From positions 36,692 through 100,691 of the forward strand of contig CAVQIH010000012.1 in the NCBI GenBank assembly GCA_963712585.1: DNA of 64,000 bases, in the 5' to 3' direction. Numbering within the stretch: position 1 is the stretch's first letter; the number at the start of each line of letters is the position of its first letter. Shown in pieces: positions 1 through 64,000 of the stretch. Source of the DNA: an uncultured Chloroflexia bacterium. Its GTDB lineage: Bacteria; Chloroflexota; Limnocylindria; Limnocylindrales; CSP1-4. The notes beneath the pieces are model-generated. The model worked only from the letters and a program-made list of their open reading frames with translations, had not been told where the DNA came from and searched no databases. The translations under genes were made by a program, and so were the position numbers.

Positions 1-477
1 CGCACCGGCGCCGACTACGTCATCACCCAGGTCGGCTACGACGCCCGCAAGCAGGACGAGCTGCTGCGCTGCATGCGGCCAGGGCGTCGCGATCCCGGTG
101 ATCGCCAACGTCTACATCCTGACGCACGCCGTCGCCCGCATCTTCAACGCGGGCAAGGTCCCCGGCTGCGTGGTCACCGACGAGCTGCTCGCCGTCGTCG
201 AGCGGCCAGGGCAGTCTCGCCCGACAAGGGCCGGGCGTTCTTCCTCGAGCTCGCCGCCAAGCAGGTCGCGATCGCCCGCGGCCTCGGCTACCGCGGGGGT
301 CTACCTCGGCGGGCACCGGGACGGCCGACGGAGGTCGAGCGGATCCTCGAGCTCGCGGACGGCTTCGGGCCGGACGACTGGCGCGACTTCGCCCGGGAGA
401 TCCAGTTCGGCCAGCCGGGCGAGTTCTACCAGTTCGAGCGCGACGCGACGACCGGGCTGGCATCCGACCGACCGTGA
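1..477 (+). pseudogene. metF: methylenetetrahydrofolate reductase (MetF/MTHFR-like), 5'-truncated by the window edge, at least 2 apparent frameshifts
   Basis: Piecing three frames together gives ...TGADYVITQVGYDARKQDELLR...IPVIANVYILTHAVARIFNAGKVPGCVVTDELLAVVE...KGRAFFLELAAKQVAIARGLGYRG..GGH...EVERILELADGFGPDDWRDFAREIQFGQPGEFYQFERD, a typical MTHFR C-terminal half. The ORF track shows it split over frames 1 and 2. Confidence 0.6.
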
Positions 478-1007
478 GCCGTCGCTACCGGCGCTCCTCG
501 ACCACCGGCCGCACGGCGGCGCGCGCGCCGCCGCGTCCCCCTCGCCTACCGCTTCGAACCGGCTCGTCCACGACCTCGTCTTCACGCCGGGGACGCGCGG
601 GCTTCCGGCTCGGCACCGCGCTTCTACGAGCGAGCGGAGCGGCTGCACCTCGCGCGGCCGCTCCACGTGCTCGAGCAGGCGGTCAAGGTCCCGCTCTTCG
701 ACTGCCGCGACTGCGGCGACTGCTCGCTGCCCGACATCGCCTACCTCTGCCCCGAGTCGCAGTGCGCGAAGAACCAGCGCAACGGCCCGTGCGGCGGCTC
801 GCACGACGGCGATCTGCGAGGTCGGGCGACCGCGAGTGCATCTGGGCCCAGGCCTACACGCGACTCAAGCCGTACGGCGAGGAGCTGACGCATGCTCGAC
901 CGCCCGCCCGTCCTGACCGACAACGCGCTGCGCCGCACGAGCGCCTGGGCCAACACGTTCCTCGGCCGCGACCATCGCCTGGCGACGCCGAGACAGGAGA
1001 GCCACTG
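478..1007 (+). pseudogene. metV: MetV-like (MTHFR C-terminal-domain, Cys-rich zinc-binding) protein, frameshifted
   Basis: Composite translation contains VKVPLFDCRDCGDCSLPDIAYLCPESQCAKNQRNGPCGGS...ECIWAQAYTRLKPYGEELTHMLDRPPVLTDNALRRTSAWANTFLGRDHRLATPRQESH. The CxxC...GPCGG motif is typical of the small MetV partner of MetF in acetogen-type MTHFR. Its stop TGA (1005-1007) overlaps the ATG of the next gene. Confidence 0.5.
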
Positions 1008-2109
1008 ATGCGGACGACCCGGACCGGCACGCCCTTCCTCGTCATCGGCGAGAACATCCACGCCACCCGGGTGGTCAAGCGGACGGGCAAGCACATCGTG
1101 GTCGACGCCGACGGCCGGTCGACGCGATCGCGCTTCACCGATCCCGATGGCGAGCGCAACTCCTGGCCATCCCCCGGGCGATCCGCGACGGCCGGGACTT
1201 CGCGGCGGGCAAGGTCAAGCACGTGCGAGCGGCCATTCTCGCCGGCATGAGGGCGACGCGAGCGCGACGCCGCCGACGGCCGGGCCTACCTGCAGTCGAT
1301 GGCCGCCCGCCAGGAGGCGGCCGGCGCCGACTGGCTCGACCTCAACGTCGACGAGGTGAGCCGCCGACCTGGAGACCCAGAAGGCGGCGATGCGCTGGCT
1401 GGTCAGGACGGTGGAGCAGGTCGCCAGTGTCCCGATCTCGCTCGACTCCTCGAATGCCGACGTCATCGCGGCGGGGCTTCAGGCATCTCGGGACGGCACG
1501 CGTGAGGCGGCCGCCGCAGCGCTCGCGGCGGGACCGGCTGGCTTGACCACCCGGCCGCTTCTCAACTCCGCCTCGAAAGACCGCACCGACGTGCTCGACC
1601 TCGCGGCCGCGGCCGGCTGCCCGGTCATCGTGACCGCCGCCGGCGGGACCGCAATGCCTACCAGCGCCGGGGAGCGCGTCGTGAACGCCAGCGCGATGAT
1701 CGAGCGGGCGCTGGCCCTGGGCATCGCCGCTGGGCGCCCTCCACGTGGACACCTCGTTCTGCCCGTCGCCGTCGACCCGGAGGTCGGGACGCATTTCATC
1801 GAAGCGGTCCGCCGCCTGCGTCAGACGTTCGGCCCCGAGCTCCACCTGACGGGCGGGCTTCGCAACGTCTCGTTCGGGCTTCCGCTCCGCCGGCTCCTCA
1901 ACGACGTCTTCATCGACCTGGCCGTCGAGGCCGGGGTGGACAGCGGCATCGTCGACCCGATCGCGACCGACCTCGGACGGGTCTTCGCACTCGATCGCGG
2001 CGCGCGAACGTATGCCCTGGCGGCGGACCTGCTCCTGGGTCGCGATCCCTACGGTGGGGCCTTCATGGCCGCCTACCGGGCCGGCGAGATCGAGGTGGCG
2101 GTCGGCTGA
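1007..2109 (+). pseudogene. pterin-binding (DHPS-like) methyltransferase, methyl-THF:corrinoid methyltransferase-like, multiple frameshifts
   Basis: An RBS (aggaga) precedes ATG 1007. Fragments read FLVIGENIHATRVVKR...HIVVDADGR.., then AYLQSMAARQEAAGADWLDLNVDEV.., then an intact 239-aa C-terminal ORF 1390-2109 carrying VPISLDSSNADVIAAGL...GCPVIVTAAGG, the pterin-binding barrel signature. Confidence 0.55.
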
Positions 2110-8704: not shown

Positions 8705-9471
8705 TCAGGAAGCGAGGCAGGCTTCCAGGTCGCCCAGGGTGATGTAGTCACCGGGTCGTGCCCCGCTTCGATTCGCGAGCACGACCGTCTTCTCTCCCCC
8801 GGGGTCTCCGAGGGACGACACGACCAGGATTGCTTCGCTGTTGTCCTCCTCTTCGGTGTACCCGTTGACGGTCATGAAGCAACGGAGGCCGGCTCCGATT
8901 GCCGCGAGGAGTCCGTTGCGTGAGTCTTCGATGACGAGCACTTCGGCCGGTCGCACCCCAAGGCGCTCGAGGGCGAGCAGGTAGATGTCGGGGGCCGGCT
9001 TCTTCTTCGCCACCACGTCCCCCGCGAGGATGAGGTCGAAGCGGGCGGCCCGCTCGGGCCCGACCGCCTTGTCGAGGATCGCCTTCACCGACAGTTCAGC
9101 GGACGTGGAAGCGACCGCGAGCGTCCAGCCGGCATCCTGGGCCGCGGTGATGATCCGCTTGATCCCGGGCCGCGGCGGCAGCCTCCCGGCCTCCACCATC
9201 TCCGTGTAGATCTGCGGTCTTGCGCTTGTGCCACTTCGCGAGCTCGGCGGCCTGGCCCTCGGGGTCCCCCGGCAGACCGTTCGCCCGAACGAAGTCGGGC
9301 GTCAAGCAGGCTCGCCATCCGTTCCTTGCCGCCGGCGATCAGGAGCTTCTGGCCGTACTCCTCCTCGGACCACTGCGACCGGTAGCCCGAACTCTCTGAA
9401 GGTCTGGTTGAAGGCAGGCAGGTGGCCGTAGCGCTCGGTGTCCGCGAGGACGCCGTCGCAGTCGAAGATGA
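8705..9471 (-). pseudogene. HAD-superfamily hydrolase (CbbY/phosphatase-like), at least 3 apparent frameshifts in 9200-9400
   Basis: N-terminus is [13 protein letters not shown] (HAD motif I) and C-terminus is LVIEDSRNGLLAAIGAG (motif IV). The middle is spread over three frames. The GTG start overlaps the fba stop. Confidence 0.6.
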
Positions 9472-10330
9472 GGGTGCTCACCAGGCCTTGCCCTCGCTGC
9501 CGAACATCCGGATGTGGTGCTTGGCCATCTCGAGGACGGCCGCCCGCTGGGCCTTGAAGATCGACGGCGGGTCGTACTCGCCCGGGTGCTGCGGTCATGT
9601 AGTCGTAGCCCGACTGCATGAACGCGATCTTCAGAGCGGTGGAGATGTTGACCTTGGCGCAGCCGCGCGCGATGAGGTCGGTGAACTGCTCTGGCGTCAT
9701 GCCCGTGCCGCCATGAAGTGCGACCGGGATGCCGGTCGCGGCAACGATGTCGGTCACACGCTGGTTGTCCAGCTTCGGGGTCGTCTTGTACATGCCGTGG
9801 GCGTTGCCGATGGCGGGGGCGAACACGTCCACTCCGGTCGCCCTGACGAAGTCGACGGCGGCCTCGAGCGACTGCTCGTTCACGCGCTCGTCGTCCGCCA
9901 TGTCCTCGACGCGCTTGAAGCCCTCGATCTCGCCCTCGACCGCGGCGCCGTACCGGCGCGCCTCGGCCACGACCTCGATGCACTGGCGCTTGTTCTCCTC
10001 GACGGACAGCTTCGAGCCGTCGAAGAGCACCGAGTTCCAGCCCGCCTCGAGACAGGTGCTGATGACGTCCCGCTCGGGACAGTGGTCCAGGTGAAGGGCG
10101 ACCGGGACGGTGATGGGACGGGTCATCTCGACCCACATGCCATACAGGACGTCCCGCCCTAACTGCTTGACCGTCTTGACCGACGTTTGAATGATCAGCG
10201 GAGCCCGCAGCTCTTCTGCCGCGGCAAGCACCGCCTCGAGCGTCAGGTCGTTGACTACGTTGATAGCCGCGACACCGAAGTGATCCTTGAACGCCTTTTC
10301 AAGGATCGCCTGGGTAGGCACGACAGGCAC
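9468..10330 (-). CDS. fba: class II fructose/tagatose-bisphosphate aldolase (one apparent frameshift near 9575-9595)
   Basis: Has HLDH and ALHGGTG motifs plus [10 protein letters not shown]. The C-terminus ...[44 protein letters not shown] is recovered in a shifted frame. Confidence 0.75.
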
Positions 10331-11471: not shown

Positions 11472-11599
11472 TGGAACACCTTCGGCGCGTGATCAGATGC
11501 TCACTCGTGGACAGATACGCAGTCTATGCCCAACGCGGAGGCCATACAAGGGCTCGCTGCTGCGATCGTCGGAAACGGGTCGACCGGATGCGGACGACT

Positions 11600-11696
11600 T
11601 GGCGGGAGCGCATGGGAGTCGAACCCACCGCGTCACGTCGAGCGTGGCGCCACCGGTTTTGAAGACCGGGGGACCCACCGGGACCCCTCCGCTCCC
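11600..11696 (-). tRNA. selC: tRNA-Sec (selC), anticodon UCA
   Basis: Reverse complement reads GGGAGCGGAGGGGTCCCGGTGGGTCCCCCGGTCTTCAAAACCGGTGGCGCCACGCTCGACGTGACGCGGTGGGTTCGACTCCCATGCGCTCCCGCCA. It is 97 nt with an 8-bp acceptor stem, a CU-UCA-AA anticodon loop, a long variable arm, and a T-loop GGTTCGACTCC. CCA is encoded. Confidence 0.85.
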
Positions 11697-11777
11697 GCAT
11701 CGGATGGTAGCGCGGGCGTGCCCAGCCCCGGTTGGCCGCCGGGTCCCCGCCGCCCGCCGCCCCCTTATCATCGGCCC

Positions 11778-12903
11778 ATGTCCAGGCAGACCATGTCTGA
11801 GCACCCCGAGCCAACACGGCCCGAACCGCCCCAGGCCGGCCGGCCCCAGCGTGCCGTGGCACAAGCATCCCCGCTCCGCCTGACCGAGCTCACGGATTGC
11901 GGGGGCTGCGCGGCCAAGCTCGGGGCCGACCTGCTCGCCGACGCCCTGGCCGACCTGGGGGCCCAGCGTGCACCCGCGGAGCTCATCGTCGGCCTCACCC
12001 CTCCCGACGATGCCGCGGCATACCTCGTGGCCCCCGATCTGGCGATCATCGGGACGCTCGACTTCTTTCCCCCGCTCGTCGACGATCCTCGAATGTACGG
12101 CGAGATCGCCGCGGCAAACGCGTTGAGCGATGTCTTTGCGATGGGCGGCCGAGTCCTGTTTGCCCTCTCGATCGCGGCCTTCCCCGAGGAGCTGCCGCGG
12201 GAGGCGATGGCGGCGATCTTCGACGGCGCTGCGGCCAAGGTTCGCGAGGCGGGCGGAGCGCTCGCCGGCGGCCACACGATCCGGGATCCGGAGCCGAAGT
12301 TCGGGCTCGCCGTCGTCGGCGCGGCTCACCCCGATCGCCTCCTGCGCAAGGGCGGGGCTCAACCGGGCGACGCCCTTGTCCTGACCAAGCCGCTCGGCAC
12401 GGGGCTCCTCGTCAGCGGCAGCCGCCAGGGCATGACGGAACCGCGACCACCTCGCCCGGGCGATCGATTCGATGTGCCGGCTGAATCGGCCGGCAGCCGA
12501 GACACTCGTCGCCGCAGGCGTGCGCGCGGCGACCGACGTCACCGGCTTCGGCCTGCTGGGGCACGGGCTCGAGATGGCCCGGGCGTCCGGCACCCGGTTC
12601 GTCTTCGAGGCCGCGACCCTGCCGGCGCTCGAAGGAGCGCGGACACTGGCGGCTGCCGGCGTGGAGACCGGCGGGGCGGCCCACAACCGGCGCTACGTGG
12701 CGCCGGCGCTCAGCGTCGGGCCGGAGGTTCAGCCCCCACTGGTGACGCTCGCCCACGACCCGCAGACCTCGGGAGGACTGCTCGCGGCCATCCGGCCCGC
12801 CAGCCTGGCTCGAACCCGGGCCGCCCTGCTAGCCGCCGGCGTGGAGCACTGGGTGATCGGCCGCGTGGAAGCCTCAGCCGAGCCGGCGGTCGCCCTGACC
12901 TGA
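11778..12903 (+). CDS. selD: selenide, water dikinase (selenophosphate synthetase) SelD, Cys-type; one apparent frameshift near 12430
   Basis: N-terminus has LTELTDCGGCAAKLG (the Cys/Sec motif, Cys here). PurM-like body with ...GGHTIRDPEPKFGLAVVG...; the C-terminal 143 aa continue in the neighbouring frame. Confidence 0.8.
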
Positions 12904-12960
12904 CGCCGACCGTCGGCGCCCGGCGCCGATCCCGCGGGGACCGGCCCTGCAGGCACCGGG

Positions 12961-13827
12961 CTACAGCTCGGCGGTGCGCTCGGTCGGGCCCGTCTGCCAG
13001 CGCCAGGTCATGGCCGCCCGAAGCGACGACCCTGGCTCCAACCGAGCCAAGCCCGTCCCCGGGACGCCACGGTCGGCGAGAGCCGGAGCGTTCGGCCAGG
13101 CGGTCTGGGGCTCGACGCAGAACGACTCCGGGCGAGTGTGAACGACGATCGTGCGCAGCGGTCCGTCGGACGCGATCTCGAGCTCGCGATCGGCCCATCG
13201 GATGACGGCCGGCGACGCGACATCGGGATAGACGTGGTCGAGGGCCCGGCCATCGACCGCTGGACCGGCGCGCAGGTCGGTGATCGCGTCCACAGGGTGG
13301 CGCCGGCCTGTCGGGATGAGATCGCGCGTTTCGAGCACCTCGTCGCCTGCCACCCGAACACGCGCCCCGCCGCCCATCCTGAACCAGGGGTGCCAGCCGA
13401 ACGAGGCCGGCATCGAGCGCTCGGCTACCACCTCGGCCTCGGCGACGAGCCCGTCGGGCGATAGCCGGACGCGCTGGCGGACGAGTCCGCCGAACGGCCA
13501 ATCCCCGCCCTCGAGCCGGCAGCTCAGAACAGCCTCCGACGGCGTCACCCGCTCGACGGACCACGGCCGACCGTACACCACCCCGTGGATGGCGTTGGGT
13601 CCGTCGTTCGGCTGGAGCCTGTGGCGGACACCATCCCAGTCGAGAACGGCGCCCGCGATCCTGCCCGCCCAGGGAGCCATGAGGAAACAGCCCCAGGAGA
13701 AGGACCGATCGGTCGGGTCCGGCGGACCGACCAGCAGCTCCCCGGCATCGACCGTCAGCGAGCACCAGCGGCCGCCCCGATCCGGGTCGATCGCGAGTGC
13801 GGTGCCACCGGCGTGGAGCTCAATCAT
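12961..13827 (-). CDS. aldose 1-epimerase family protein (mutarotase-like)
   Basis: 288-aa beta-sandwich epimerase-like sequence with conserved HGVVYGRPW and FGWHPWF. Confidence 0.65.
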   Translation of the reverse strand: MIELHAGGTALAIDPDRGGRWCSLTVDAGELLVGPPDPTDRSFSWGCFLMAPWAGRIAGAVLDWDGVRHRLQPNDGPNAIHGVVYGRPWSVERVTPSEAVLSCRLEGGDWPFGGLVRQRVRLSPDGLVAEAEVVAERSMPASFGWHPWFRMGGGARVRVAGDEVLETRDLIPTGRRHPVDAITDLRAGPAVDGRALDHVYPDVASPAVIRWADRELEIASDGPLRTIVVHTRPESFCVEPQTAWPNAPALADRGVPGTGLARLEPGSSLRAAMTWRWQTGPTERTAEL

Positions 13828-13945
13828 GCGCCCAACCCCGGGTGCCCGGCGCGTCGCCTGCCGTCAGGCAGAGCGGACGGAGGCGCCCGATGACCGTGGA
13901 CCACGGGCAACCCAGGGGCGAGTCCAGACTGCACGCCCATGTCGA

Positions 13946-15008
13946 CTAAGTGGGAATCACGGGACGGCTGCTCTCGCGGACGATGAGCTCGGGCTGGAGC
14001 AGGGTTGGCTGGGAGGTGAACGCGTCTGGGGCCCGCCGCGACTGTCTCGCCTTCTTGATCGATTGATCGATCTCCCGGACCGCCAGGGCGCCAACATCCC
14101 CAAGCGGCTGGTGGACGGTCGTCAGGGGCGGCCAGAAATGGGACGACTCGGCGATGTTGTCGACGCCCACCACCGACAAGTCTTCGGGCACCCGGCGACC
14201 GAGCCGGTGGGCCCCGTGGAGGACCCCGAGCGCCATCTGGTCGTTGCTCGCGAAGACCGCGTCGATGCCGGGCCGCTCCTCCAGAAGCCGGTACAGGCCC
14301 TGCTCACCGCTCTCCGCGCTCCAGTCGCCCTCCACGACCAAATCGTCCGATGCGACGACCCCACGCTCCTCGAGCGCCTCGCGCCACCCTCGCCGGCGCT
14401 GCTGGGCCTCCCACCAGCTGAGCGGGCCGGTGATGATCGCGACCTGGCGGGCCCCGCCCGCGAGGAGGTGCTCGGTGGCCACGCGGCCGATCGCGTGGTT
14501 GTCGATGCCGATCGACGGACAGGCTTGCTCGTCCGGCCGGGCTCGCCGACCAGGATCACCGGCACGGGCAGGTCCGGGCTCCTCGTGTGGACCAGTTGCG
14601 GTTGTCGCCGACCTCGGGGATCGCCCAGATGATGCCGTCGACCTGGCGGGCGACGAGACTGTTGAGCAGCTGTTCGACGTCGTCCGTCTCGGGCTCGTGG
14701 ATGAGGTTGAGGGAGATCGCGTAGCCCATGCTCGGCCGCCTGCTGCTCGATGCCGGTCAGCACGCGCGACGGTCCGAAGTACTCGAGGCCGTAGGCGACG
14801 ACGCCGAGGATGTGACTGCGGCCCTGGGTGAGGCTGCGGGCGAGCATGTTGGGTGCGTAGCCCGTGTCCGTCGATGACCCGCTGGACGCGCTCGAACGTC
14901 TCGGCGGCGACATCGGGCCGGTTGTTCAGGACGCGGGACACCGTCTGCGTCGAGACGCCCGGCGGCCTCCGCCACTTCCTTGATCGTCAGGCGCCGTCGT
15001 AGGGCCAT
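13946..15008 (-). pseudogene. LacI-family transcriptional regulator, several apparent frameshifts
   Basis: N-terminal [43 protein letters not shown]... and a C-terminal periplasmic-binding-like domain ...[29 protein letters not shown]...[13 protein letters not shown].., split over three frames. Confidence 0.7.
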
Positions 15009-15596
15009 CAATACGTGCTCCGATGCTAGCCGGCATCGGTCGGTCGCCGCAATCGACCATCTTGACGGCGGCTGGGCGACGATGCTAGGTTGTTACCGTT
15101 CCCGTTAGCGCTAACGGGAACGGTAACAGGCGCTGCAGCGGCAATCAGGAGTCTCGGTCGAGTCCACGTCCTTCGGGAAGTCGTCGACGCCCGGCCCACG
15201 GCGCTCCCCGTGGCGCGCCAGACCAGCAAGGCCCTCGGGAGGCGTCGAGCCACTCGGCCGGATGGGTTGCAGCGATGCGTTCGCGGAGCGCCGACGCCGG
15301 ATGGAGAGGTCGGCGTCGAACGAGTCGAAGAACCCTGTTCGAGCTCGGGTCGGGGCGTGATCGAGGGACGAATGAGCTCGACTGCATCGGCAATTCCCAG
15401 CGGGTCGCCGAGTGCCTGGCCCGGCGCGGTGATCTTGGAGGAGGTGCCGATGGTGTCAGGGACGGCCTGAACCGCGATCGACGGCAGGCGCCGGCGTGCG
15501 GACTCGAGCCGCTCCGCATCGGCCGGACGCTGAGCCCCTGACCACGGCGCGCTCCAGCGAACTTCGAACCACACCATCGGAGACGGAGACCAGACA

Positions 15597-16662
15597 ATGA
15601 CGAAGTCTGCGATCACTCCCCAGGATCGCGATGGCAGTTCGGTGATGCGCCGTCCTGGTGGCCGCCTGCTCGCTCGGGCAGCCTCGACCGCCGCCAGCGC
15701 GGCGGCGCCGACGCGCGGCCCCGTCCGTCGCAGCGCCGCGGCGCCCACCGCGGCCGCAGCCGCGAAGACCTACAAGGACCTGACGGTCGGCTTCATCCAG
15801 ACCGGCTCCGAGGGCGGCTGGCGCGCCGCCAACACCGCGTCCTTCAAGGAGACGCGCGAGCAAGCTGGGCATCAACCTCAAGTTCTACGACGCCCAGAAC
15901 AAGCTGGAGAACCAGCTCACGGCGTTCCACCAGTTCATCGCCGGACGACGTCGGTCAACGTCATCATCCTCGCCGCGCTCGAGGCGACCGGCTGGGACGA
16001 CGTCCTCAAGGAGGCCAAGGCCGCCGGCAAGATCGTCGTCCTCGAGGACCGCCGCATCGACGCCGCCCGAGGACCTGTACGCCACGTACATCGGCTCCGA
16101 CTTCACCCTCGAAGGGCCGCAAGGCCGCCGTCGAGATGTGCAAGCTGCTCGAAGGCAGCGCCAAGAAGAACGTCGTCGAGCTCGTCGGCAACGTCGGCTC
16201 GTCGGCGGCCATCGACCGCGGCAAGGGCTTCCGCGAGAAGATGGGCGACTGCGGCATCACCATCACCGAGACCCAGACCGGCGAACTGGGGCGTCCACCG
16301 AGGGCAAGGCCGTCATGGAGGCCTTCCTCAAGAAGAGCAAGGACATCCAGGGCGTGTTCGCCCAGAACGACGAGATGGGCCTCGGCGCCGTCCAGGCGAT
16401 CAAGGAAGCCGGCCTCAAGCCCGGCAAGGACATCAAGATCATCACCGTCGACGCCACCAAGGGCGCGCTTCAAGGCGATGATCGCCGGCGAGCATCAACA
16501 CCGTCGTCGAGTGCAACCCGCTGCTCGCCCCGCAGGTCTACGAGGCCGCCCTCAAGGCCGTCAACGGCGAAGACGCTGCCCGAAGTGGGTCCCGTCGCAG
16601 GAGGGCGAGTTCTTCGCGCCAGGCGACGCCGCGCAGAGATCCTGCCGACCCGCAAGTACTAG
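15597..16662 (+). pseudogene. sugar ABC transporter periplasmic substrate-binding protein (ribose/galactofuranose family), at least 6 apparent frameshifts
   Basis: Fragments read [30 protein letters not shown]..; [35 protein letters not shown]; [25 protein letters not shown]..; [36 protein letters not shown]. Confidence 0.65.
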
Positions 16663-16764
16663 AGCCGGCAGTGCAGGCCTGACCGCGTCGAGGAGCGATC
16701 GCGGCGCGGAGCCGCCCGCTCGCCTCCTCGTCCACCGCACGTCCAGGCATCGCAGGGTAGCGCC

Positions 16765-18304
16765 GTGTCAGACACCGGCACGCCTCCTCGTCCATGCACG
16801 GCATCGACAAGGCCTTCCCGGGCGTCCAGGCCCTCGCAGGGCGTCGACTTCGCGCTCTGGCCGCGGCGAGATCCACGCCCTCGTCGGCGAGAACGGCGCC
16901 GGCAAGTCGACGCTGATCAAGGTCCTGACCGGCGTCGAGCGGCCCGACGCCGGCACCATCACCTTCGACGGCCAGGACGGTCGCACGTCCGCTCGCCGCA
17001 GCACGCCCAGACGCTGGGCATCAGCACGGTCTACCAGGAGGTCAACCTCTGCCCCAACCTGCCGGTGGCCGAGAACATCCTGATCGGCCGCGAGCCGCGG
17101 CGCTGGGGCCGGATCGACTGGCGCGCGATGAACCGCCGGGCCCGCGAGATCCTCCGCGGCCTCGACATCGACGATCGACGTCACCCAGCCGCTCGGGCTC
17201 CTACTCGGTCGCGATCCAGCAGATGGCGGCCATCGCCCGGGCGCTCGAGATCTCGTCGGCCAAGGTCCTCATCCTCGACGAGCCGACCTCGAGCCTCGAC
17301 GCCCACGAGACCGAGCAGCTCTTCGGCGTGATGCGCAAGCTGCGCGGCGAGGGCATCGCGATCGTCTTCATCACCCACTTCCTCGACCAGGTCTACGAGG
17401 TCGCCGACCGGATCACGGTCCTGCGCAACGGGCGCGCTGGTCGGGACCTACGCGACGGCCGCGCCTGCCGCGCTTCGAGCTGATCACGCAAGATGCTCGG
17501 GCGGAGCCTGACCGAGCTCGACGACATCGGCCGGCACAAGATGGAGAGCGAGCCAGCGCATCGGCGCCGGCGAGCCGCTGCTCGAGGCCGACGGGCTCGG
17601 CCGGCCGGGCTCGATCGAGCCGTTCGACCTCGAGCTCCACGCCGGCGAGGTCGTCGGCCTGGCCGGCCTGCTCGGCTCGGGCCGGACCGAGATCGCCAGC
17701 CTGCTCTTCGGCATCGACCAGCCCGACCGACGGCACGCTCGACGATCGACGGCAAGCCGGTCGACGACTTCTCGCCGCTCGGCTCGATCGAGCGCGGCGT
17801 CGCGCTCTGCCCGGAGGACCGCAAGGCCGAGGGGATCGTCGCCGACCTGACCGTGCGCGAGAACATCGTCCTGGCCATCCAGGCCGGCCGCGGCTGGCTC
17901 CGCTACCTGAGCCCGGCCGAGCAGTACGAGATCGCCGACGAGTACATCAAGCTGCTCAACATCGCGACGCCCGTCGGCCGACCAGCCGGTCAAGAACCTG
18001 AGCGGCGGCAACCAGCAGAAGGTGATCCTCGCCCGCTGGCTGGCGACGAACCCGCAGGCTGCTGATCCTCGACGAGCCGACCCGCGGCATCGACGTCGGC
18101 GCCAAGGCCGAGATCCAGCGGCTCGTGCTCGTCGCTGGCCGAGGAGGGCATGTCGTGCGTGTTCATCTCGTCCGAGCTCGACGAGGTGCTGCGCACGAGC
18201 CACCGGATCGTCGTCCTGCGCGACCGGGTCAAGGTCGACCGAGTTCGCCGGCGAGGTCGACGAGCAGCGCGATCATGCAGGCGATCGCCGGGGGCGGAGC
18301 ATGA
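16765..18304 (+). pseudogene. sugar ABC transporter ATP-binding protein (two-NBD type), multiple frameshifts
   Basis: Contains [23 protein letters not shown] (Walker A), LDEPTSSLD (Walker B), and a second NBD fragment ...[17 protein letters not shown]. The stop overlaps the ATG of the first permease. Confidence 0.65.
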
Positions 18305-19411
18305 GCACGCTCGGCGCCGTCGCTCAGCCGGCAGCCGGTTCACCGAGAGCCAGGCTCTTCTTCCCGCTCGTCGCCCTGGGGCTCATCCTGCTGTTCGACC
18401 TGATCTTCGTCCCCGGCTTCTTCACGCTCGAGGTGAAGGACGGCCACCTGTACGGCAGCCTCGTCGACATCCTGCGCAACAGCGTCCCGACCGTCATGCT
18501 GCTCGCGATCGGGCATGACGCTCGTGATCGCCACCGGCGGCGTCGACCTGTCGGTCGGCGCGGTCATGGCGATCTCGGCCTCGGTCGCCTGCGATCCTCA
18601 TCGACCCCGGATCGTCGGGGTCGACCTGCAGGCAACATCACGACCGTCGTCGGCGACCCGACCTTCAGCTTCGCGCCGCTGCCGGTCGTGATCCTCGTGC
18701 CGCTGTTCGTCGCGACCCTGTGCGGCGTCTGGAACGGGGTCCTGGTCGCCTACGGCGGGATCCAGCCGATGGTCGCGACGCTGATCCTGATGATCGCCGG
18801 CCGCGGCATCGCCCAGCTGATCACGAACGGCGATCAAGATCCAGCATCTTCTACGAGCCGTTCGCGTTCATCGGCAACGGCTGGATCGTCCTGCCGGTCT
18901 CGCTGTTCATCGTCGCCGTGCGTCTTCGTCGTCGCCTGGCTGCTGACCCGCCGGACGGCGCTCGGGCTGTTCATCGAGTCGGTCGGGATCAACGCCCGGT
19001 CGAGCTTCTACAGCGGCATCAACGAGAAGCGGATCAAGCTCTTCGCCTACACGTTCTGCGGCTTCTGCGCCGGCATCGCCGGGCTCGATCGCGGTCTCGA
19101 GCATCCGGACCTCGGACGCCAACAAGATCGGCCTGTACATCGAGCTCGACGCGATCCTCGCGGTCGTCATCGGCGGGACCGCTGCTCGGGGCCGGCGGCC
19201 GGTTCTCGCTGCTGGGCAGCATCGATCGGCGCGCTCGTCATCCAGGCCACGACCACCTCGATGTACGCCATCGGCGTCCCGGCCAGCGCGATCACTCGCG
19301 ATCAAGGCGCGTCGTCGTCATCATCGTGATCCTGCTGCTACTCGCGACCAGGCGCAGGACCTGCTGCGATCCGCCGGCTCGCGGCTCGCGCGACAGGAGG
19401 CCGGCGCATGA
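18301..19411 (+). pseudogene. sugar ABC transporter permease (RbsC/BPD-type), multiple frameshifts
   Basis: Hydrophobic fragments MTLVIATGGVDLSVGAVMAISASVA.., GIQPMVATLILMIAGRGIAQLITNG. The stop is inside ATGATG, overlapping the next start. Confidence 0.6.
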
Positions 19412-20450
19412 TGCAGACGCTGCGCGCGTCCGGCTCGTCGAACAACCGGCGGTTCCTGCCGCTCGCGGCGACCGATCGCCCTGTTCGCCGTCGCCTACGT
19501 CCTCGGCGCGCTCGTCGTTCGCCGGGCATGCGCGACCGGCAGGTCGTTCTTCAACCTGTTCCTCACGACGCCGTTCCTGCTGATCAGCGTCGTCGGCGAG
19601 ACGTTCGTCATCCTCTCGGGCGGCATCGACCTGTCGGTGAGCGGCGTCGTCGCGCTGACGACCGTCGCCTCCGCCGCCCTGCTCGCGAGGCGGGCTGGGA
19701 CCCGTGGCTCGTGATGCCGCTCATGCTGCTGATGGGCATGGCCATCGGCGCGTCGATGGGCTTCTTCATCACCTACCTGAAGGTGCAGCCGTTCATCGCC
19801 ACCCTGGCCGGCATGTGGTTCGCCCGGGGCCTGTGCTTCTTCATCAGCGACGACGAGATCCGCGATCACGACCCGCCTGTACGACGTCCTGGCCGGGACC
19901 CGAGATCCTGATCCCGGGCCTGGCCGATCCGGTCGACCAAGAAGGGCGACTACATCTCGATCCTCGTCGTCGTCGCGCTGGTCGTCCTCGCGGTGGCGCA
20001 TGTTCGTCGCCCACTACACGCGGCTTCGGCCGGACGGTCTACGCGATGGGCGGGAACAACGGCGCGAACGAGCAGTCGGCGCGGCTGATGGGCCTGCCGG
20101 TCAACCGGACCAAGATGCTGGTCTACACGCTCAACGGGTTCTGCTCGGCGCTGGCCGGCATCGCCTACAGCATCTACGTCGGCTCCGGCCACGGCACCGC
20201 ACGCGACGGGCTTCGAGCTGACGGTCATCGCGCGCGGTCGTCATCGGCGGCACGGCGCTGACCGGCGGCGAGGGCTACCTCCTCGGCACCCTGTTCGGCG
20301 TGCTCATCACGGCGCTCATCCAGACCCTCATCCAGTTCAACGGGCAGCTCAGCTCGTGGTGGACGCAGCATCGTCATCGGCGGCGCTGATGCTCGTCTTC
20401 ATCGGCGTCCAGAGCCTGCTGGCGGCGCGGAACACGCGGCAGCTGCGCGG
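19408..20450 (+). pseudogene. sugar ABC transporter permease (second), multiple frameshifts; 3' end uncertain
   Basis: RBS aggagg, then ATGATG. Fragments LSGGIDLSVSGVVALTTVASAA.., MPLMLLMGMAIGASMGFFITYLKVQPFIATLAGMWFARGLCFFIS, ...SSWWTQ.IVIGGALMLVFIGVQSLLAA. Confidence 0.55.
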
Positions 20451-20639
20451 GATCGAGGCTCGGCGGCGTCGGGACGAGACCTGGCCGGCGCCAGGCGCCT
20501 GCGGCGGTGGCGCGATCGGCGGGTCTGCGATCGGGGCGGCCGCCGTCGTCGTCGCGGTCGTGCGGGCGTCCAGCTCCTCGGTGCCTTCGCGGGGCGGGTC
20601 GCGGGACGGCGCGGTGCCGGCGGATCGACGGCCGGCGCC

Positions 20640-21061
20640 GGCTGCGAGCTCAAGCCGTTCCGCCAGGATCAGGCCGCCGGCCTCGTGCAGGGCGGGTGCG
20701 GTGATCGCCTACGAGCGCAACGGCGGCGCCGCCTGCGTCGACGAGCTGTACGCGATCTACCCGGACGGGCGGATCACCGGGGACAACGGCAGGCCAGACA
20801 GGTCGAGAGGCCAGATCGCGCCGGCCGACGTCGCGGCGCTGCTCGTCCGACATCAGCGCCCTCGGCTGGTTCACCGACAACATGTACTCGACCTCGCACA
20901 CCCCGTGCGGCCAGTGCTTCACGTACTTCACGGCGGTGTCGCACAACGGGCAGGCCAAGACGGTGCAGGCGGTCGACGGCGGCACGGACGCTCCGGCCAA
21001 CTACTGGCTCGTGACCGGCAAGCTGTCGGCGATCCTGCCCAAGTTCACCGCGGCGCCGTGA
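20640..21061 (+). pseudogene. hypothetical protein (apparent frameshift near 20850)
   Basis: Protein-like composite ...AGAVIAYERNGGAACVDELYAIYPDGRITGDNG...DISALGWFTDNMYSTSHTPCGQCFTYFTAVSHNGQAKTVQAVDGGTDAPANYWLVTGKLSAILPKFTAAP. No family recognised. Confidence 0.3.
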
Positions 21062-21239
21062 TGACCGAGGACGAGCGAGGCGATGAACGCGCGGACGGCC
21101 CTCGTTCCCGCTCGTCGCGTGCGCGCTGCTCGTCGGCGCGCTGCGGCTACATCGTGACGCCGGCAGGACGACAGCTCGCCGACGCCGGCGGCTGACCGGC
21201 GGCTGGACGCGCGGTCGCCACGAAGGTCGAGGCAGCCGC

Positions 21240-22020
21240 CGAGCGGCGACCTGCACGTCGACGTCACCATCCGCAACGACACCGGCGACTGGAGCGCGAT
21301 GCAGGCGACGCCGGCGCGGCCGGCCGTCCTCACCACGAGCGACGGCAAGACGACGGACTGCGGCACGGTCTTCGTCGGCACGGGCGGCACGAGCCTCGCG
21401 CCCGGGCTTCCAGATGCGCGGCTACACGGGCGGCACGAAGGCGAAGCCGAGACCCAGCTCCTCTACGTCGAGTGCGCAGGGCGCCGCGGCTGCTGCCGGA
21501 TCGAAGCCTCTCGATCAGCTACAGCTACGTCACGGGCGAGTTCAACTACTACTCGCCGTCGACTCCAACGAGCGCCAAGCTCGACCTCGATCTCGACAAG
21601 GTCGCCACGGACCTGACGTATCCGGTCGCCACGCCGGTCGACGGCCTGATCGAGAAGCCGGGCGACCAAGATCGACGCCATCAACAACTGCCCGCTCACC
21701 CTCACGGGGGTCGACGCGCACCGCCGACGGCCTGGAATTCCGCTGGCACACGGAGAACCCGACCGCGTACCCGACCTACGTCCACATCGGGATCCCGCCG
21801 GTCATCGGCTCCGACGGCATCATCTACGGCCTCTACGAGAGCCCCCATCTCGCGGACACGCCGATCACGCCGGCCGGGCAATCGGCGGACTGGACGACCG
21901 AGGTCGCGGTCCCCAAGGACGTCACCGGCCTGTACATCCTGCGTGAGCGTCGAGTCAAAGCAGCAGAAGAACTTCGTCAGCCATGCCATCGACATCACCG
22001 ACCACGTAGCCTCGGGGAGT
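21240..22020 (+). pseudogene. hypothetical protein, frameshifted
   Basis: Composite ...TIRNDTGDWSAMQATPARPAVLTTSDGKTTDCGTVFVGTGGTSLAPG../..SISYSYVTGEFNYYSPSTPTSAKLDLDLDKVATDLTYPVATPVDGLIEKPG../..LEFRWHTENPTAYPTYVHIGIPPVIGSDGIIYGLYESPHLADTPITPAGQSADWTTEVAVPKDVTGLYILRER. No family recognised. Confidence 0.3.
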
Positions 22021-22028
22021 GAAGCACG

Positions 22029-23554
22029 ATGAAGCCGCTGGGCCAGTTCGAAGTCTGGTTCGTCACCGGCAGCCAGGAGATGTACGGGGACGCGACGCTT
22101 CGCCAGGTCGCGGCGAACGCCCGGCGGATCGCCGACGCGCTCGACGCGCTCGGCAGGCGATCCCGGTGCGGATCGTCTACCGGCCCGGTCGTGACGTCGC
22201 CCGAGAGCATCGCCGCGGCCTGCCGCGAGGCGAACGCGACCGACGCCTGCGTCGGGGTGATCGCTCTGGATGCACACCTTCTCGCCGGCCCGGATGTGGA
22301 TCGGCGGGCCTCCAGGCGCTCCACAAGCCGCTCCTCCACCTCCACACCCAGTTCAACCGCGATCTCCCCTGGGGCGAGATCGACATGGACTTCATGAACC
22401 TCAACCAGTCGGCCCACGGCGACCGCGAGTTCGGGTTCATCGAGACCCGCCTGCGGCTCGCCCGCAAGACCGTCGTCGGCCACTGGCAGGACCCCGACGT
22501 CGCGCGAGCGGATCGGGGCCTGGTCACGGGCGGCCTGCGCCTGGCACGAGGCGCACCGCCTCCGGGTGGCGCGGTTCGGCGACAACATGCGCCACGTCGC
22601 GGACACCGAGGGCGACAAGGTCGAGGCGCAGATCCGTCTCGGCGTGGCGGTCAACGGCTACGGCGTGAGCGACCTCGCCGCCGCGATCGGGTCGGTGTCC
22701 GGAGCCGACGTCGACGAGCTGCGTCGCCGCGCTATGACGCCGACTACGACGTCGTCGCCCGAGCTCGGGCCGGACGGAGCGCGCCGCGCCGAGCTGCGCG
22801 AGGCAGCCCGCATCGAGGCCGGCCTGCGCGTCTTCCTCGAGGTCGGCGGCTTCGGCGCCTTCACCGACACCTTCGAGGACCTCGACGGCCTGCGTCCAGC
22901 TGCCGGGCCTCGCCGTCCAGCGGCTCATGGCCGACGGCTACGGCTTCGGCGCCGAGGGGGACTGGAAGACCGCCGTCCTGGTCCGCCTGCTCAAGGTGAT
23001 GGCGACCGGCCTGCCCGGGCGGGACCTCCTTCATGGAGGACTACACCTACCACCTCGACCCGGAGGGGCCGAAGGTCCTCGGCGCCCACATGCTCGAGGT
23101 CTGCCCGTCGATCGCCGCCGAGCGACCCGCGCTGCGAGATCCATCCGCTCTCGATCGGCGCGCAAGCCGGACCCGGTCCGGCTCGTCTTCGACGCCGCGC
23201 CCGGCGACCGGCGGTCGTGGTCGGCCATGATCGATCTCGGCGACCGCTTCCGGCTCGTCGCCAACGAGATCGACATCGTCGAGCCGACCGAGCCGCTGCC
23301 CACGCCTGCCGGTCGCCCGGGCGGTCTGGCGAGCCGCGGCCCGACCTGCGACCGGCGACCGAGGCGTGGCTGATCGCCGGTGGGTCGCACCACACCGTCC
23401 TCAGCCAGGCGATCGGGATCGGAGCCCCTCGCCGACTTCGCCGAGATGGCGCGCATCGAGCTCCTCTCGATCGACGAGGACACGACCGTGCGCGCCGTCC
23501 GCAACGAGACTGCGCTGGAACCAGGCGTACTACCGCCTGGCCGGCGGACTCTGA
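22029..23554 (+). pseudogene. araA: L-arabinose isomerase AraA, several apparent frameshifts
   Basis: N-terminus [21 protein letters not shown] matches AraA. Later fragments ..[36 protein letters not shown].., ..[41 protein letters not shown].. are in other frames. Confidence 0.75.
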
Positions 23555-23573
23555 GGCCGCAGGAGGGATCCAC

Positions 23574-25296
23574 GTGGCTGCGAAATGCGCGATCGGCATC
23601 GACTTCGGGACAGAGTCGGGCCGCTCGGTCCTCGTGTCGCTGGCGGACGGCCGAGAGCTGGCCCAGTCGGTCTACGGATACCGGAACGGGGTGATCGACG
23701 ATCACCTGCCCGCTCCGCACGGGGGGCAACGCCTGCCGCCTGACTGGGCGTTGCAGGATCCCGAGGATTACGTGCGGACTGTTCAGCAGACCGTGCCGGC
23801 CGTGCTCCGGGCCTCCGGTGTGGATCCGGTCGACGTCGTGGGCGTCGGCATCGACTTCACCGCCTGCACGATGATGCCCACGACCGCCGACGGGACACCG
23901 CTCTGCGTCCTGCCGGAGTGGCGGGCGAATCCGACACGCCTGGGTCAAGCTGTGGAAGCATCACGCGGCCCAGCCGGAGGCGGACCTGATCAATGCGACA
24001 GCCCGGCGCCTGGGTGAGAGCTGGCTGGCGAGGTACGGCGGCAAATACTCCTCGGAGTGGTTCTTCAGCAAGGCGCTCCAGATCCTCGACGAGGCCCCGG
24101 AAGTTTACGCGGCGGCGGACCGGCTCCTCGAAGCCGCCGACTGGATCGCCTGGCAGCTCACCGGCTCGGAGACACGTAACCTGACGACCGCCGGCTACAA
24201 GGCGATGTGGTCCAAGCGCGACGGCTTCCCCCGCGGCGAGTACTTCGCGGCGCTCGACCCACGGTTCGCCCGAATCGTGGACGACAAGATGAGCCGCGAC
24301 ATCCGCGCCCTGGGAGAGCCTGCCGGCGGGCTCTCGCCCCAGGCGGCCGCCTGGACGGGCCTGCCCGCCGGGACGCCCGTCGCCATCGCCAACGTCGATG
24401 CCCACGTGTCCGTCCCCGCGGTAGGGGTAACCGGGCCAGGAACGCTCGTCGCGATCATGGGGACGAGCATCTGCCACATGGTCCTCGGCAGCGAACTGCA
24501 CGACGTCGAGGGGATGTGCGGCGTCGTCGATGGCGGCATCCTGCCCGGCATGTTCGGGTACGAGGCAGGCCAGTCGGGGGTCGGCGACATCTTCGCGTGG
24601 TTCGTCGACAACTGCGCTCCCGGCGCCATGCGCGACGAGGCCGCGACCCGGGGCGTCGACCTCCACGCGCTCCTCGAGGCCGAGGCGGCGAAGCTGCGGC
24701 CCGGCGAATCGGGCCTCCTCGCACTCGACTGGTGGAATGGCAATCGCTCCGTGTTGGTCGACGTCGACCTGAGTGGCGTGCTGCTTGGCGCCACGCTCGC
24801 GACGCGGGCACCGGACGTCTATCGCGCGCTCATCGAGGCGACCGCGTATGGGACGCGGGTCATCTGCGACACCTTCGCCGAGAACGGAGTCGCGGTCGAC
24901 GACATCGTCGCCTGCGGCGGACTCCCGGAGCGCAATCGACTCCTCATGCAGATCTACGCCGACGTCACCGGGAGGCGCATCCGGGTGAGCGCGTCGTCAC
25001 AAACGCCGGCGCTCGGGTCCGCGATGTGGGCGGCGGTCGCTGCGGGCGGGCGCGCCGGAGGCTACGACACGATCGAGGACGCCGCGGCGCGGATGGCCCA
25101 CCTGCGCGACGAGGCGTACGAACCCATCGCCAGTCACCACGCGACGTACGACCGCCTCTACCGCGAGTACGTGCGCCTGCACGACTACTTCGGGCGCGGG
25201 GAGAACGACGTCATGAAGACGCTTCGGGGGATCCGCGCGGATGCCGTCGGGCATGGGGGCGCCGGACCAGCCGGCGCGGGTGCCCCGCATGTCTGA
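23574..25296 (+). CDS. araB: ribulokinase AraB (one apparent frameshift near 23940-23990)
   Basis: RBS aggaggg, then GTG. FGGY-kinase N-terminus CAIGIDFGTESGRSVLV.., ..GYKAMWSKRDGFPRGEYFAALDPRF.., C-terminal ..CGGLPERNRLLMQIYADVTGRRI... The stop overlaps the araD start (ATGTCTGA). Confidence 0.8.
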
Positions 25297-26005
25297 GCGC
25301 TCCACGGACAGCGGGAATCTCCGCGAGCGCGTCTGCGCAGTCAACCTCGGCCTGGTGAAGGCGGGGCTCGTGGTCCTGTCGTTCGGCAACGCCAGCGCGG
25401 TCGACCGCGATCGAGGGATCGTCGCCATCAAGCCGAGCGGGGTCGCCTACGAATCGTTGCGTCCGGAGGACATCGTCCTGGTCTCGCTCGAGGACGGCCG
25501 GCTCATCGAGGGAACGAAGCGTCCGTCCTCCGACACACCGACCCATCTGATCCTCTATCGGGCGTTCCCGTCGGCGGGAGGCATCGTCCATACGCATTCG
25601 GTCCATGCCTCGAGCTGGGCCCAGGCTGGACGAGAGATCCCCTGCCTGGGGACGACCCATGCGGATCACTTCCGGGGAGCCGTGCCGGTGACGCGGGCAC
25701 TCTCCGATCAGGAGATCGCCGGAGACTACGAGACGCATACCGGCCTGGTGATCGTGGAGCGCTTCCAAGCCGGCGGGATCGATCCTGCCGAAGTCCCGGC
25801 TTGCCTGGACGTCAGGCACGGCCCCTTCGTGTGGGGAGCGTCGCCAGAAGAGGCACTGGCGAACGCGATCGCGCTGGAGCATGTCGCGGCCATGGCGCTC
25901 AAGACGCTGGCGCTTGCCCCGGGGATCGGTGCCGCGCCCGAGGCGCTGGTGGAGCGCCATTTCCATCGCAAGCACGGAGCCGGCGCCTACTACGGCCAGC
26001 CCTGA
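25291..26005 (+). CDS. araD: L-ribulose-5-phosphate 4-epimerase AraD
   Basis: Class II aldolase/epimerase fold: ..VVLSFGNASAVDRDRGIVAIKPSGVAYESL...GGIVHTHSVHAS... Intact. Confidence 0.85.
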
Positions 26006-35644: not shown

Positions 35645-36657
35645 ATGACCGACTGGCGCGACCGGCTCAACGCCGATCCCCTGCCCTGGCTCCTCGAAGA
35701 CGAGACGCCCGCCGTCCGGCACCTGGCACTCCGCCAGCTGCTCGACCGGTCGGCCGACGACCCCGACGTGATGGCGGCGCGGGACGCCGCGACGCGCGCC
35801 GACCCGATCGCGGCGATCTTCGCCGCCCAGGATCCGGCCGGCTGGTGGGCCAAGCCGGGACCCGGCTACGCCCCAAGTACAGCGGCACGGCCTGGCAGCT
35901 CATCTTCCTCGACCAGCTGGGGGCCGACCCGGACCAACCCGCGGTCGCCGCGGGCTGCGACTACGTCCTCTCCCACTCCCAGGCGACCTCGGGCGGCTTC
36001 GGGGCGTCATCGGTGCGTACCTCGTCTGCACCGCCGCCGTCGATGGTCATCCACTGCCTCAACGGCAACCTCCTGCGCGCCCTGGTGGGCTTCGGTCGCC
36101 TGGACGACGAGCGGGTTCAACGGGCCGTCGAATGGCAGGCTGCCGCCATCACCGGCGAGGGTGAGATCCGCTTCAACGCCATCACCCCCGGACCGGGCTT
36201 CCGCTGCGGCGCGAACGAGGGGCTCCCGTGCGGCTGGGGGGCCACCAAGGCAGTCCTCGGCCTGGCCCGCATCCCGCCCGAACGGCGCGGCCCGCGCGTC
36301 CAGCGGGCCCTCGACGCCGGGGTCGACTTCCTCCTCAGCCGCGACCCTGCCACCGCGGACTACCCAATGGGCTACGGGAACACCAAGCCGAGCAGCTCGT
36401 GGTTCAGGCTCGGCTTCCCCTCAGGCTACGTCGGCGACGTCCTCCAGGTGCTCGAGGCCCTCTGCGAGGCCGGCGCGGCCCACGATGGTCGCCTCGGCCC
36501 AGCCGTGGCGTGGCTGCTCGGCCAGCAGGACCGCGCCGGCCGCTGGGAGAACCGCTACGCCTACGCGGGCAAGATGATCGTCGACATCGACCAGCCGGGC
36601 CGCCCGAGTCGCTGGGTCACCCTGCGCGCTTGTCGCGTCCTCAAGGCCGTCGCTTAA
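35645..36657 (+). CDS. hypothetical protein, possible prenyltransferase/terpene-cyclase-like alpha-alpha toroid repeat protein (one apparent frameshift near 35873)
   Basis: MTDWRDRLNADPLPWLLEDETPAVRHLALRQLL...WWAKPGPGYAP|KYSGTAWQLIFLDQLGADP...GWGATKAVLGLARIP...GRWENRYAYAGKMIVDIDQPGRPSRWVTLRACRVL. The fold assignment is tentative. Confidence 0.35.
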
Positions 36658-46454: not shown

Positions 46455-46804
46455 TTAGTACGCCGTGGCGCGCCGGCTGGCGAAGCAGTCGTTGCAGTAG
46501 ACCGGCTTGCCGCTCGTCGGCCGGAACGGCACCTGGGCCTCGCGGCCGCAGCTGGAGCAGGTGGCGGTGAACATCTCGCGCGGGCCGCGCGAGCCACCGC
46601 TGTAGCCACCGCCGGCGCGCCGTAGCCGCCCGAGCTGGCGCCGTAGCCGCCGCAGTCGCCACGGGCCGCCTTGCGGCTCGCGCGGCACGACGTGCAGCGA
46701 CGCGGCTCGGTGAACTGGCGGCTGGCGTAGAACTCCTGCTCGCTCGCCGTGAAGACGAACTCCTGGCCGCAGTCGGCACAGGTCAGGGTCTTGTCCGTAT
46801 ACAA
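46455..46804 (-). pseudogene. double zinc-ribbon / Gly-rich small protein, tandem paralog (copy 2) with apparent frameshift(s) in the Gly-rich linker
   Basis: (M)YTDKTLTCADCGQEFVFTASEQEFYASRQFTEPRRCTSCRASRKAARGD.GGYGA.. | ..GGYSGGSRGPREMFTATCSSCGREAQVPFRPTSGKPVYCNDCFASRRATAY. About 85% DNA identity to copy 1 including the leader. Confidence 0.5.
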
Positions 46805-62065: not shown

Positions 62066-62151
62066 CCGCCGCGCCGTGTCGACGCGCTTGGATCATCGCC
62101 AAGCGCGGCCCGGTTCGGGTAGAGCCGAATGTCCCGCCGTGGGCCGGGCGA

Positions 62152-63136: not shown

Positions 63137-63283
63137 TGCTCACCTCCGAAGTAGGGCGGGTGTCCCGTCGGCCCGATTCTGCGCCCGGCCGCGAACGTCC
63201 GTCGGCCGGCCTGAAAGCGGACCGCAGAGGCGGGCAAGTTGGGGACCAACGGCCCTTGGGCTCTGGCAGCACCGCACCGGAGA

Positions 63284-64000
63284 GTGCGACCATCACCGCG
63301 GATCAGCCGGACACTGGAGGACCAGCGCCCATGGCCAGGCACGCAGAAGCTCGACGCGTGGGTCGGAGAAGTCGCCGCACTGTGCCAGCCCGACCGCGTC
63401 CAGTGGTGCGACGGCTCGCCAGCCGAGTACCAGGAGATGCTGCGGCTGATGGTCCAGGCGGGCACGGCGATCCCGCTCGATGCCGCCCGGCGCCAGACAG
63501 CATCCTCGTCCGCTCCGATCCGGCCGACGTGGCGCGCGTCGAGGACCGCACGTTCATCTGCTCGAGGACGCCAGGAGGACGCCGGCCCGACCAACAACTG
63601 GGCCGACCCGGACGAGATGAAGGCCACGCTTGCGCGGGCTCTTCACGGGCTCGATGAAGGGGCGCACGCTGTACGTCATCCCCTACAGCATGGGCCCGAT
63701 CGGCTCGCCCATCGCCAAGATCGGCGTCGAGCTGACCGACTCGCCGTACGTCGTCGCCAACATGCACATCATGACCCGCGTCGGGACGCAGGTGCTCGAC
63801 GTGCTCGGCGAGGACGGCGAGTTCGTGCGCGGCCTGCACTCGGTCGGCGCGCCGCTCGGCCCGAGCCGACCCCGACGTGCCCTGGCCGTGCAACGCGCGA
63901 GCACAAGTACATCTGCCACTTCCCGGAGACGCGCGAGATCTGGTCGTTCGGCTCGGGCTACGGCGGCAACGCGCTGCTCGGCAAGAAGTGCCACGCGCTG
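63284..64000 (+). CDS. pckG: phosphoenolpyruvate carboxykinase (GTP) PckG, 3'-truncated by the window edge, at least 3 apparent frameshifts
   Basis: ..[116 protein letters not shown]...[34 protein letters not shown] aligns with mycobacterial PckG across three frames. Confidence 0.75.

Follow-up and report, generated by a model that had tools for sequence, protein, structure and literature searches.

Organization of the locus

The window analysed here is a stretch of 64,000 nucleotides with a G+C content of ~70% (contig CAVQIH010000012.1 of assembly GCA_963712585.1, positions 36,692 to 100,691), and the subject of this analysis is a dense cluster of apparent frameshifts that runs through its genes for sugar uptake and arabinose metabolism. 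These genes include a LacI-family regulator (lacI) and, divergently oriented from it, the four components of a sugar ABC transporter, a conserved gene that follows the transporter, and then araA, araB, and an araD-like gene (Table 1). In the divergent intergenic region between lacI and the binding-protein gene, a perfect 38-bp palindrome (TGTTACCGTTCCCGTTAGC/GCTAACGGGAACGGTAACA) is located at positions 15091–15128 and represents a candidate LacI-family operator or hairpin.

The transporter is similar to the YtfQRT-YjfF galactofuranose ABC transporter of Escherichia coli in the order of its components, comprising a binding protein, a double ATPase, and two permeases. The best NCBIfam matches of the four components are YtfQ, YtfR, YtfT, and YjfF, all of them full-length, with the equivalog scores of YtfR (709 vs 850), YtfT (306 vs 535), and YtfQ (267 vs 510) each below the respective cut-off. 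Unlike in the E. coli system, the YjfF-like permease of the window carries an extra C-terminal domain and is followed by the conserved unknown gene, which encodes a protein of 305 residues. The permease extension (~200 residues) is conserved and contains conserved cysteines (for example, 'CGQCF'); neither the extension nor the 305-residue protein has a match in Pfam or NCBIfam. The extension is found at full length in the operons of three other loci (L082, L029, and L014), and the match in a fourth one (L081) ends at residue 445. The 305-residue protein is encoded in L082, L029, and L081, and the copy in L014 is truncated where the scanned stretch ends. The module occupies positions 13752–16362 in L082, 3714–6249 in L029, 13649–15626 in L081, and 15451–17045 in L014; the two elements may constitute an uncharacterized accessory module of these sugar transporters. 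Diverse metagenomes contain a very large number of sequences with 85% identity to the binding protein, and the transporter operon is therefore unusually conserved and widespread.

Table 1. Error-dense tracts, patches, and genes of the main tract, in positions of the window
Feature	Position	Strand	Frame errors and other observations
Main error-dense tract	14516..23934	.	94 frame errors (80 '+1', 9 '+2', 5 '-1'), aligner vs intact orthologues
LacI-family regulator	13952..15008	-	5-6 frame errors, all in 14516-14960
YtfQ-like sugar substrate-binding protein	15598..16662	+	11 frame errors, 0 stops
YtfR-like double ABC ATPase	16791..18301	+	16 frame errors, 0 stops
YtfT-like permease (permease-1)	18336..19390	+	13 frame errors
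YjfF-like permease (permease-2), C-terminal extension ~200 residues	19408..21061	+	16 frame errors
Conserved protein of ~305 residues, lipoprotein-like N-terminus	21083..22002	+	13 frame errors
araA (L-arabinose isomerase)	22023..23554	+	18 frame errors, 0 stops
araB (ribulokinase)	23559..25296	+	One extra base at ~23934, then 1,362 bp clean
araD-like class II aldolase, same pathway as araA/araB	25304..26005	+	No frame error
Second error-dense tract, runs off window start	1..1752	+	~16 frame errors: metF 3' end, metV (DUF5981), pterin-binding methyltransferase
Small patch	9215..9592	-	3 extra bases in HAD hydrolase, 1 in class II fructose-bisphosphate aldolase (fba)
Small patch	35873..36042	+	3 frame errors, prenyltransferase/squalene-cyclase-like gene
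Small patch near window end	63494..63891	+	4 frame errors in pckG; PEPCK_N match spans all four

Density and borders of the main tract

Between 15.6 and 23.7 kb, the phase in which third-position G+C peaks changes again and again, and it stays constant in the rest of the window. A codon-usage Viterbi decoder, trained on the long open reading frames of the window and permitted penalized frame jumps, placed ~53 jumps within 15.6–23.6 kb and very few elsewhere. Individual events were located with a custom frameshift-aware protein-to-DNA aligner, the references being intact orthologues. For the tract, these were the products of the syntenic operon of L082 (NCBI GCA_040960625.1), namely a 334-residue binding protein, a 506-residue ATPase, permeases of 360 and 549 residues, and the 305-residue unknown protein, as well as araA, lacI, and araB open reading frames from other fetched loci. 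Errors in the main tract occur at a rate of ~1 per 100 bp, with a mean spacing of 101 bp and a coefficient of variation of 1.02, which corresponds to a Poisson process. The remaining 54.5 kb yielded 24 events at first count and ~32 after reference-based realignment of positions 1–2100; with the first outside count, the concentration of 94 events in the tract has a binomial p = 1e-55 and an index of dispersion of 7.2.

Two controls bear on the aligner itself. It returned no events in the intact L029 operon, which is of similar divergence, and in 80 araB orthologues (~135 kb) it returned eight frame events, of which two were internal and the other six, like the single stop detected, lay at alignment ends. 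According to both controls, frameshifts are not a product of the aligner. A preliminary description of this DNA had claimed a strongly uneven frameshift density and had proposed a comparison with orthologous loci; that comparison, in which the tract requires 94 frame corrections, reveals an unevenness stronger than claimed. The numbers given there for the transporter ('at least 15') and for araA ('at least 4') turn out to be large underestimates.

From lacI through araA, every gene contains many disruptions that its intact orthologues lack, and the affected genes form one functional cluster. Both features would be expected of real, ongoing pseudogenization of sugar-import and arabinose genes in a specialist in C1/formate/sulfur redox metabolism, the second of two explanations offered in the preliminary description. 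The borders of the tract, however, are placed inside genes. In lacI, errors are confined to the 5' 450 bp, with none in the 3' 564 bp (P = 0.004 given the error rate of the tract), so the left border lies inside this gene, and since 1,362 clean bp follow the event at ~23934, the right border lies inside araB. A single pathway is split in this manner, with 18 errors in araA, one in the first quarter of araB, and none in araD; the part of araB after codon ~125 and the whole of araD, both belonging to the pathway that would be decaying, are pristine.

Other patches and clean regions

The second error-dense tract was aligned to a fused MetF-MetV-MeTr homologue (P0241), and its corrections are mostly '+1', with a density equal to that in the sugar genes. 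The genes riddled here, metF, metV, and the methyltransferase (MeTr), are C1 genes that the hypothesis of a C1 specialist would need intact. In addition to the three small patches, isolated '+1' events are found in selD, fdhA, fgd, and the AKR gene, and an isolated event at 46605 in a zinc-finger gene was typed only as a two-base skip. Pfam matches continue across the junctions of the small patches and of the isolated events, and the patches in the HAD hydrolase, fba, and pckG are therefore real.

The genes listed as clean in the preliminary description (selB, selA, dhaKL, two hdrA genes, nuoEF, and the gene of a 3.3-kb secreted protein) are indeed uninterrupted, over 14.9 kb. Among the genes said to carry single shifts, selD, fdhA, fgd, the AKR gene, araB, and fba have one event each, and pckG has four. 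The minimum of three events stated both for the HAD hydrolase and for the metF/metV/MeTr trio agrees with the three extra bases in the former and falls far short of the ~16 in the latter. The contrast drawn between riddled sugar genes and clean redox genes does not stand, with one event in araB, none in araD, and a C1 trio as dense in errors as the sugar genes; because of that equal density and of the patches found elsewhere, the contrast is an accident of patch positions.

Two features of the genes in these regions may be noted in their own right. P0241, a protein of 751 residues from another genome, is a fusion of MetF, a MetF C-terminal/MetV-like domain (DUF5981), and a pterin-binding methyltransferase, whereas in positions 1–2109 of the window metF has its own stop at 475–477, with metV and the methyltransferase following as separate genes. 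In fdhA, an in-frame TGA at 37009–37011 (context DSCNRT-TGA-HAPSVAGL) occupies the expected position of selenocysteine, and selA, selB, and selD are located in the same window as fdhA. This TGA is neither a frameshift nor a premature stop; the true '+1' error of fdhA is found beyond it, at ~37897.

Error spectrum and site context

Among the 94 events of the main tract, 80 consist of one extra base without loss of a residue, nine of two extra bases, and five of one missing base. Insertions of 1–2 nt thus make up 89 of 94 events (95%), against five deletions, and comparison of 89:5 with the 300:396 ratio of insertions to deletions in bacterial pseudogenes, discussed below, gives a binomial p = 1e-26.

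For 73 localizable insertions, the single-base deletion that best restored the alignment was sought, and random insertions simulated in the same genes served as the null. Unique insertion sites at phases 0, 1, and 2 account for 5.5, 23.3, and 2.7% of the observed insertions and for 5.3, 23.2, and 4.5% of the simulated ones; the insertions are random as to codon phase. This result bears on the possibility that the tract merges two diverged strains into one consensus or is a collapsed duplicate, with the extra bases representing both alleles of a single-nucleotide polymorphism side by side or indels arising from alignment shifts. Several insertions in the binding-protein gene do resemble doubled alleles at third codon positions, and a mixture of this kind would account for the sharp borders, as well as for inserted bases that are usually unlike their neighbours; collapsed alleles are also known to cause indel errors in long-read consensus (PMC8445201). 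Polymorphism, however, predicts a strong synonymous excess at third positions, whereas the observed phase distribution fits random insertions, and no second copy of the tract is present within the window. Doubled synonymous polymorphisms were rejected as a source, since simulated random insertions yield third-position doublets just as often and the phase classes do not depart from the null. The presence of a duplicate was likewise rejected as a cause, with a blastn search of the tract against the window returning only the 38-bp palindrome. We consider a mixture of strains or copies unlikely.

The preliminary description had attributed the events to indels in homopolymers of G or C. Only 7 of the 73 insertions (9.6%) unambiguously lengthen a run, compared with 24.9% expected at random (p = 0.0016), and runs of at least 4 bases are less frequent in the error-dense stretches (14500–23950, 1–2000, and 62001–64000; 3.9 per kb) than in clean sequence (9.2 per kb). 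An origin in homopolymer slippage or homopolymer error was rejected on these two grounds. The intact orthologous operons of L029 and L081 are also poor in runs (5.6 and 6.5 per kb, vs 7.5 and 8.9 per kb in their flanks), so natural composition explains part of the shortage of homopolymers in the tract.

No motif is shared by the error sites, with no 4-mer significant after correction for 256 k-mers. Errors linked to motifs such as GATC or CG were considered and rejected, as the strongest signals (CG upstream of the insertion, 9/23, p = 0.006; GCGC, p = 0.002) both fail that correction. The diversity of the sites also bears on the idea that the extra bases are decoded biologically, through quadruplet or +1 recoding or through their excision from the RNA, leaving the genes functional as written. 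Such decoding would explain why almost every event adds a single base, costs no residue, and leaves the protein otherwise intact. Programmed +1 frameshifting calls for a conserved motif at the shift site, whereas the site contexts found here are diverse and random in codon phase; furthermore, the sites are restricted to patches rather than spread genome-wide, and the patches cut through genes. No quadruplet or +1 recoding, or RNA-removal system, of such a kind is known in bacteria, and the probability that we would assign to this explanation is vanishingly small. It appears extremely unlikely, too, that the extra bases are truly in the DNA, whether through a recent local, insertion-biased hypermutation without the substitutions that would follow, or because they are tolerated via decoding or editing.

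Repaired products

With reading frames repaired, the six genes tested comprise 2,504 codons, none of them an in-frame stop. In simulations of neutral decay, the probability of finding no stops is 0.02 at two substitutions per indel, and at five or more substitutions per indel none of 300 simulations was free of stops; 10–20 stops would be expected at 5–10 substitutions per indel. The repaired substrate-binding protein aligns along its entire length with more than 100 intact homologues, at 81–85% identity. It keeps 147 of 149 conserved columns (defined for this protein as at least 97% conserved), its two mismatches falling within the range of the homologues (mean 0.8, maximum 6) when these are left out one by one. 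Repaired araA keeps 144 of 148 conserved columns (four mismatches, baseline 9.4), and the clean araB has two mismatches in 206 (baseline 3.0). Against the NCBIfam equivalog for L-arabinose isomerase, repaired araA scores 798 bits (cut-off, 622) in a match that extends over profile positions 2–498 of 499, while the repaired YjfF-like permease exceeds its NCBIfam YjfF cut-off (374 vs 363) in a full-length match. In the repaired ATPase translation, the Walker A, Walker B, and signature motifs are intact in both halves.

Pseudogenization of carbohydrate import is thus contradicted on several sides: by the absence of stops and the retention of conserved residues, by a spectrum of 95% insertions where true pseudogenes lean toward deletions and multi-base changes, by borders that cut lacI and araB, and by C1 genes that are equally dense in errors. 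Loss of conserved residues, accumulation of stops, multi-base indels in a balanced or deletion-leaning ratio, and decay that follows function, by which pseudogenes would be recognized, were not found in the tract, and we regard this explanation as very unlikely. The features found are those of technical error, comprising indels unaccompanied by substitutions or stops, random placement, and tracts that ignore the boundaries of genes and pathways. An association of indels with homopolymers, the classical signature of nanopore and 454 sequencing, is lacking; this signature is a trait of some platforms and not of technical errors as a whole.

Nature of the frameshift cluster

The frameshifts are very probably sequence-quality errors of the assembly, rather than mutations or a sign of gene decay. 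Consensus errors from long-read or metagenome assembly, the first of the explanations in the preliminary description, are consistent with every test that was run. The contig would most likely have been built from single-molecule long reads, with most of its length reaching good consensus accuracy and discrete stretches left near raw-read accuracy, with ~1% spurious single-base insertions. The near-raw stretches would be 14.5–23.9 kb, at least 1.75 kb at the start of the window, and three patches of 0.2–0.4 kb. Candidate causes of their escape from consensus include very low local depth, the dropping of ambiguously mapping reads by the polisher, and a gap spanned by a single read or a few reads. 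If so, lacI, the ytfQRT-yjfF-like transporter, the conserved unknown gene, and araA are almost certainly intact in the organism.

Related loci offer some parallels. In L081 (ENA ERZ25039462 contig_52787, a long-read-style contig name), positions 11171–14762 of the same operon contain eight frameshifts, and in L014, a contig of a nanopore metagenome-assembled genome from the Microflora Danica project, the same operon has three, at 13030, 13640, and 16013. That project assembled its data with Flye and one round of Medaka (PMC12313526). Frameshifts in other long-read-style contigs (those named 'contig_N') are sporadic and mostly '+1'. The two internal events of the araB control (L054, 9826; L036, 4065) both belong to long-read-style contigs, whereas events at alignment ends were seen also in some short-read-style contigs.

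Several observations weigh against sequence-quality failure as the explanation. The 18:1 excess of insertions and the small number of insertions extending homopolymers are unlike the textbook nanopore profile, which is dominated by deletions and homopolymers. Gene content accounts for only part of the scarcity of homopolymers in the tract (3.9 vs 9.2 per kb). The searched collections hold no conspecific sequence, the best non-self match of NuoEF in a search of 5.8 billion proteins being 69% identical, and there is consequently no independent copy of the locus for comparison. Finally, it is the cause of the local failure and the sequencing platform that we infer, whereas the error spectrum, the missing decay by substitution, and the borders of the tract are observed. 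The NuoEF-like protein of the window (674 residues) is itself 100% identical to P0121, which NCBI and ENA list on one contig of 268,829 bp. Named NuoEF matches slightly lower in the list than the best non-self one come from Candidatus Limnocylindrales and other Chloroflexota, and the best relative of araB among the matches listed is 74% identical; the organism appears to be poorly sampled and Chloroflexota-like.

The distinction between error and decay matters for any reconstruction of the metabolism of this organism. Taken literally, the frameshifts would delete from it the LacI regulator, the whole sugar ABC transporter, araA, part of the methyl branch (metF/metV/MeTr), fba, and pckG, and would invite a false story of reductive specialization in a poorly sampled lineage. 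The transporter, araA, lacI, metF/metV/MeTr, fba, and pckG are best regarded as intact, and the frameshifts should not be read as a loss of sugar uptake. The frameshift cluster is not a biological feature, and its value is that of a warning for annotation, with ~19% of the window calling for re-polishing or frameshift-aware annotation. Tests that do not require reads, namely the direction of indels, the stop count, retention of conserved columns, randomness of codon phase, and the position of borders relative to genes, can separate error from decay.

Comparison with known systems

Among bacterial pseudogenes, those of the Ca. Burkholderia leaf-nodule symbionts contain 300 insertions and 396 deletions, and many of these indels span several bases (Danneels et al. 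2018, PMC6054270). The tract described here is similar to them in that the reading frame of a gene is broken repeatedly, as judged against functional orthologues. True pseudogenes, however, have roughly equal or deletion-leaning ratios, multi-base indels, substitutions, and stops, whereas here 95% of events are insertions of 1–2 nt, stops are absent, and conserved positions are intact.

The regional character of the apparent frameshifts is shared with the indel errors of collapsed alleles, which disappear once the sequence is properly resolved (Cosentino et al. 2021, PMC8445201). Unlike in that case, the codon-phase test applied here shows no sign of natural polymorphism.

Residual indel errors of long-read assemblies reportedly fragment genes, a point attributed to Watson and Warr in 2019. 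In a nanopore metagenome assembly, short-read polishing corrected 172,854 insertions and 12,674 deletions (Warwick-Dugdale et al. 2019, PMC6487183). The events in the window resemble such residual indels in being single-base changes without substitutions, in the large excess of insertions over deletions, and in shattering the gene calls while the protein is otherwise conserved. They differ in their density, which is ~1,000 per 100 kb inside discrete tracts, compared with 474 per 100 kb in that unpolished assembly, as well as in the under-representation of homopolymer contexts and in the nearly clean state of the remainder of the contig. Given that near-absence of errors elsewhere, the tracts correspond to a local failure and not to uniform residual error.

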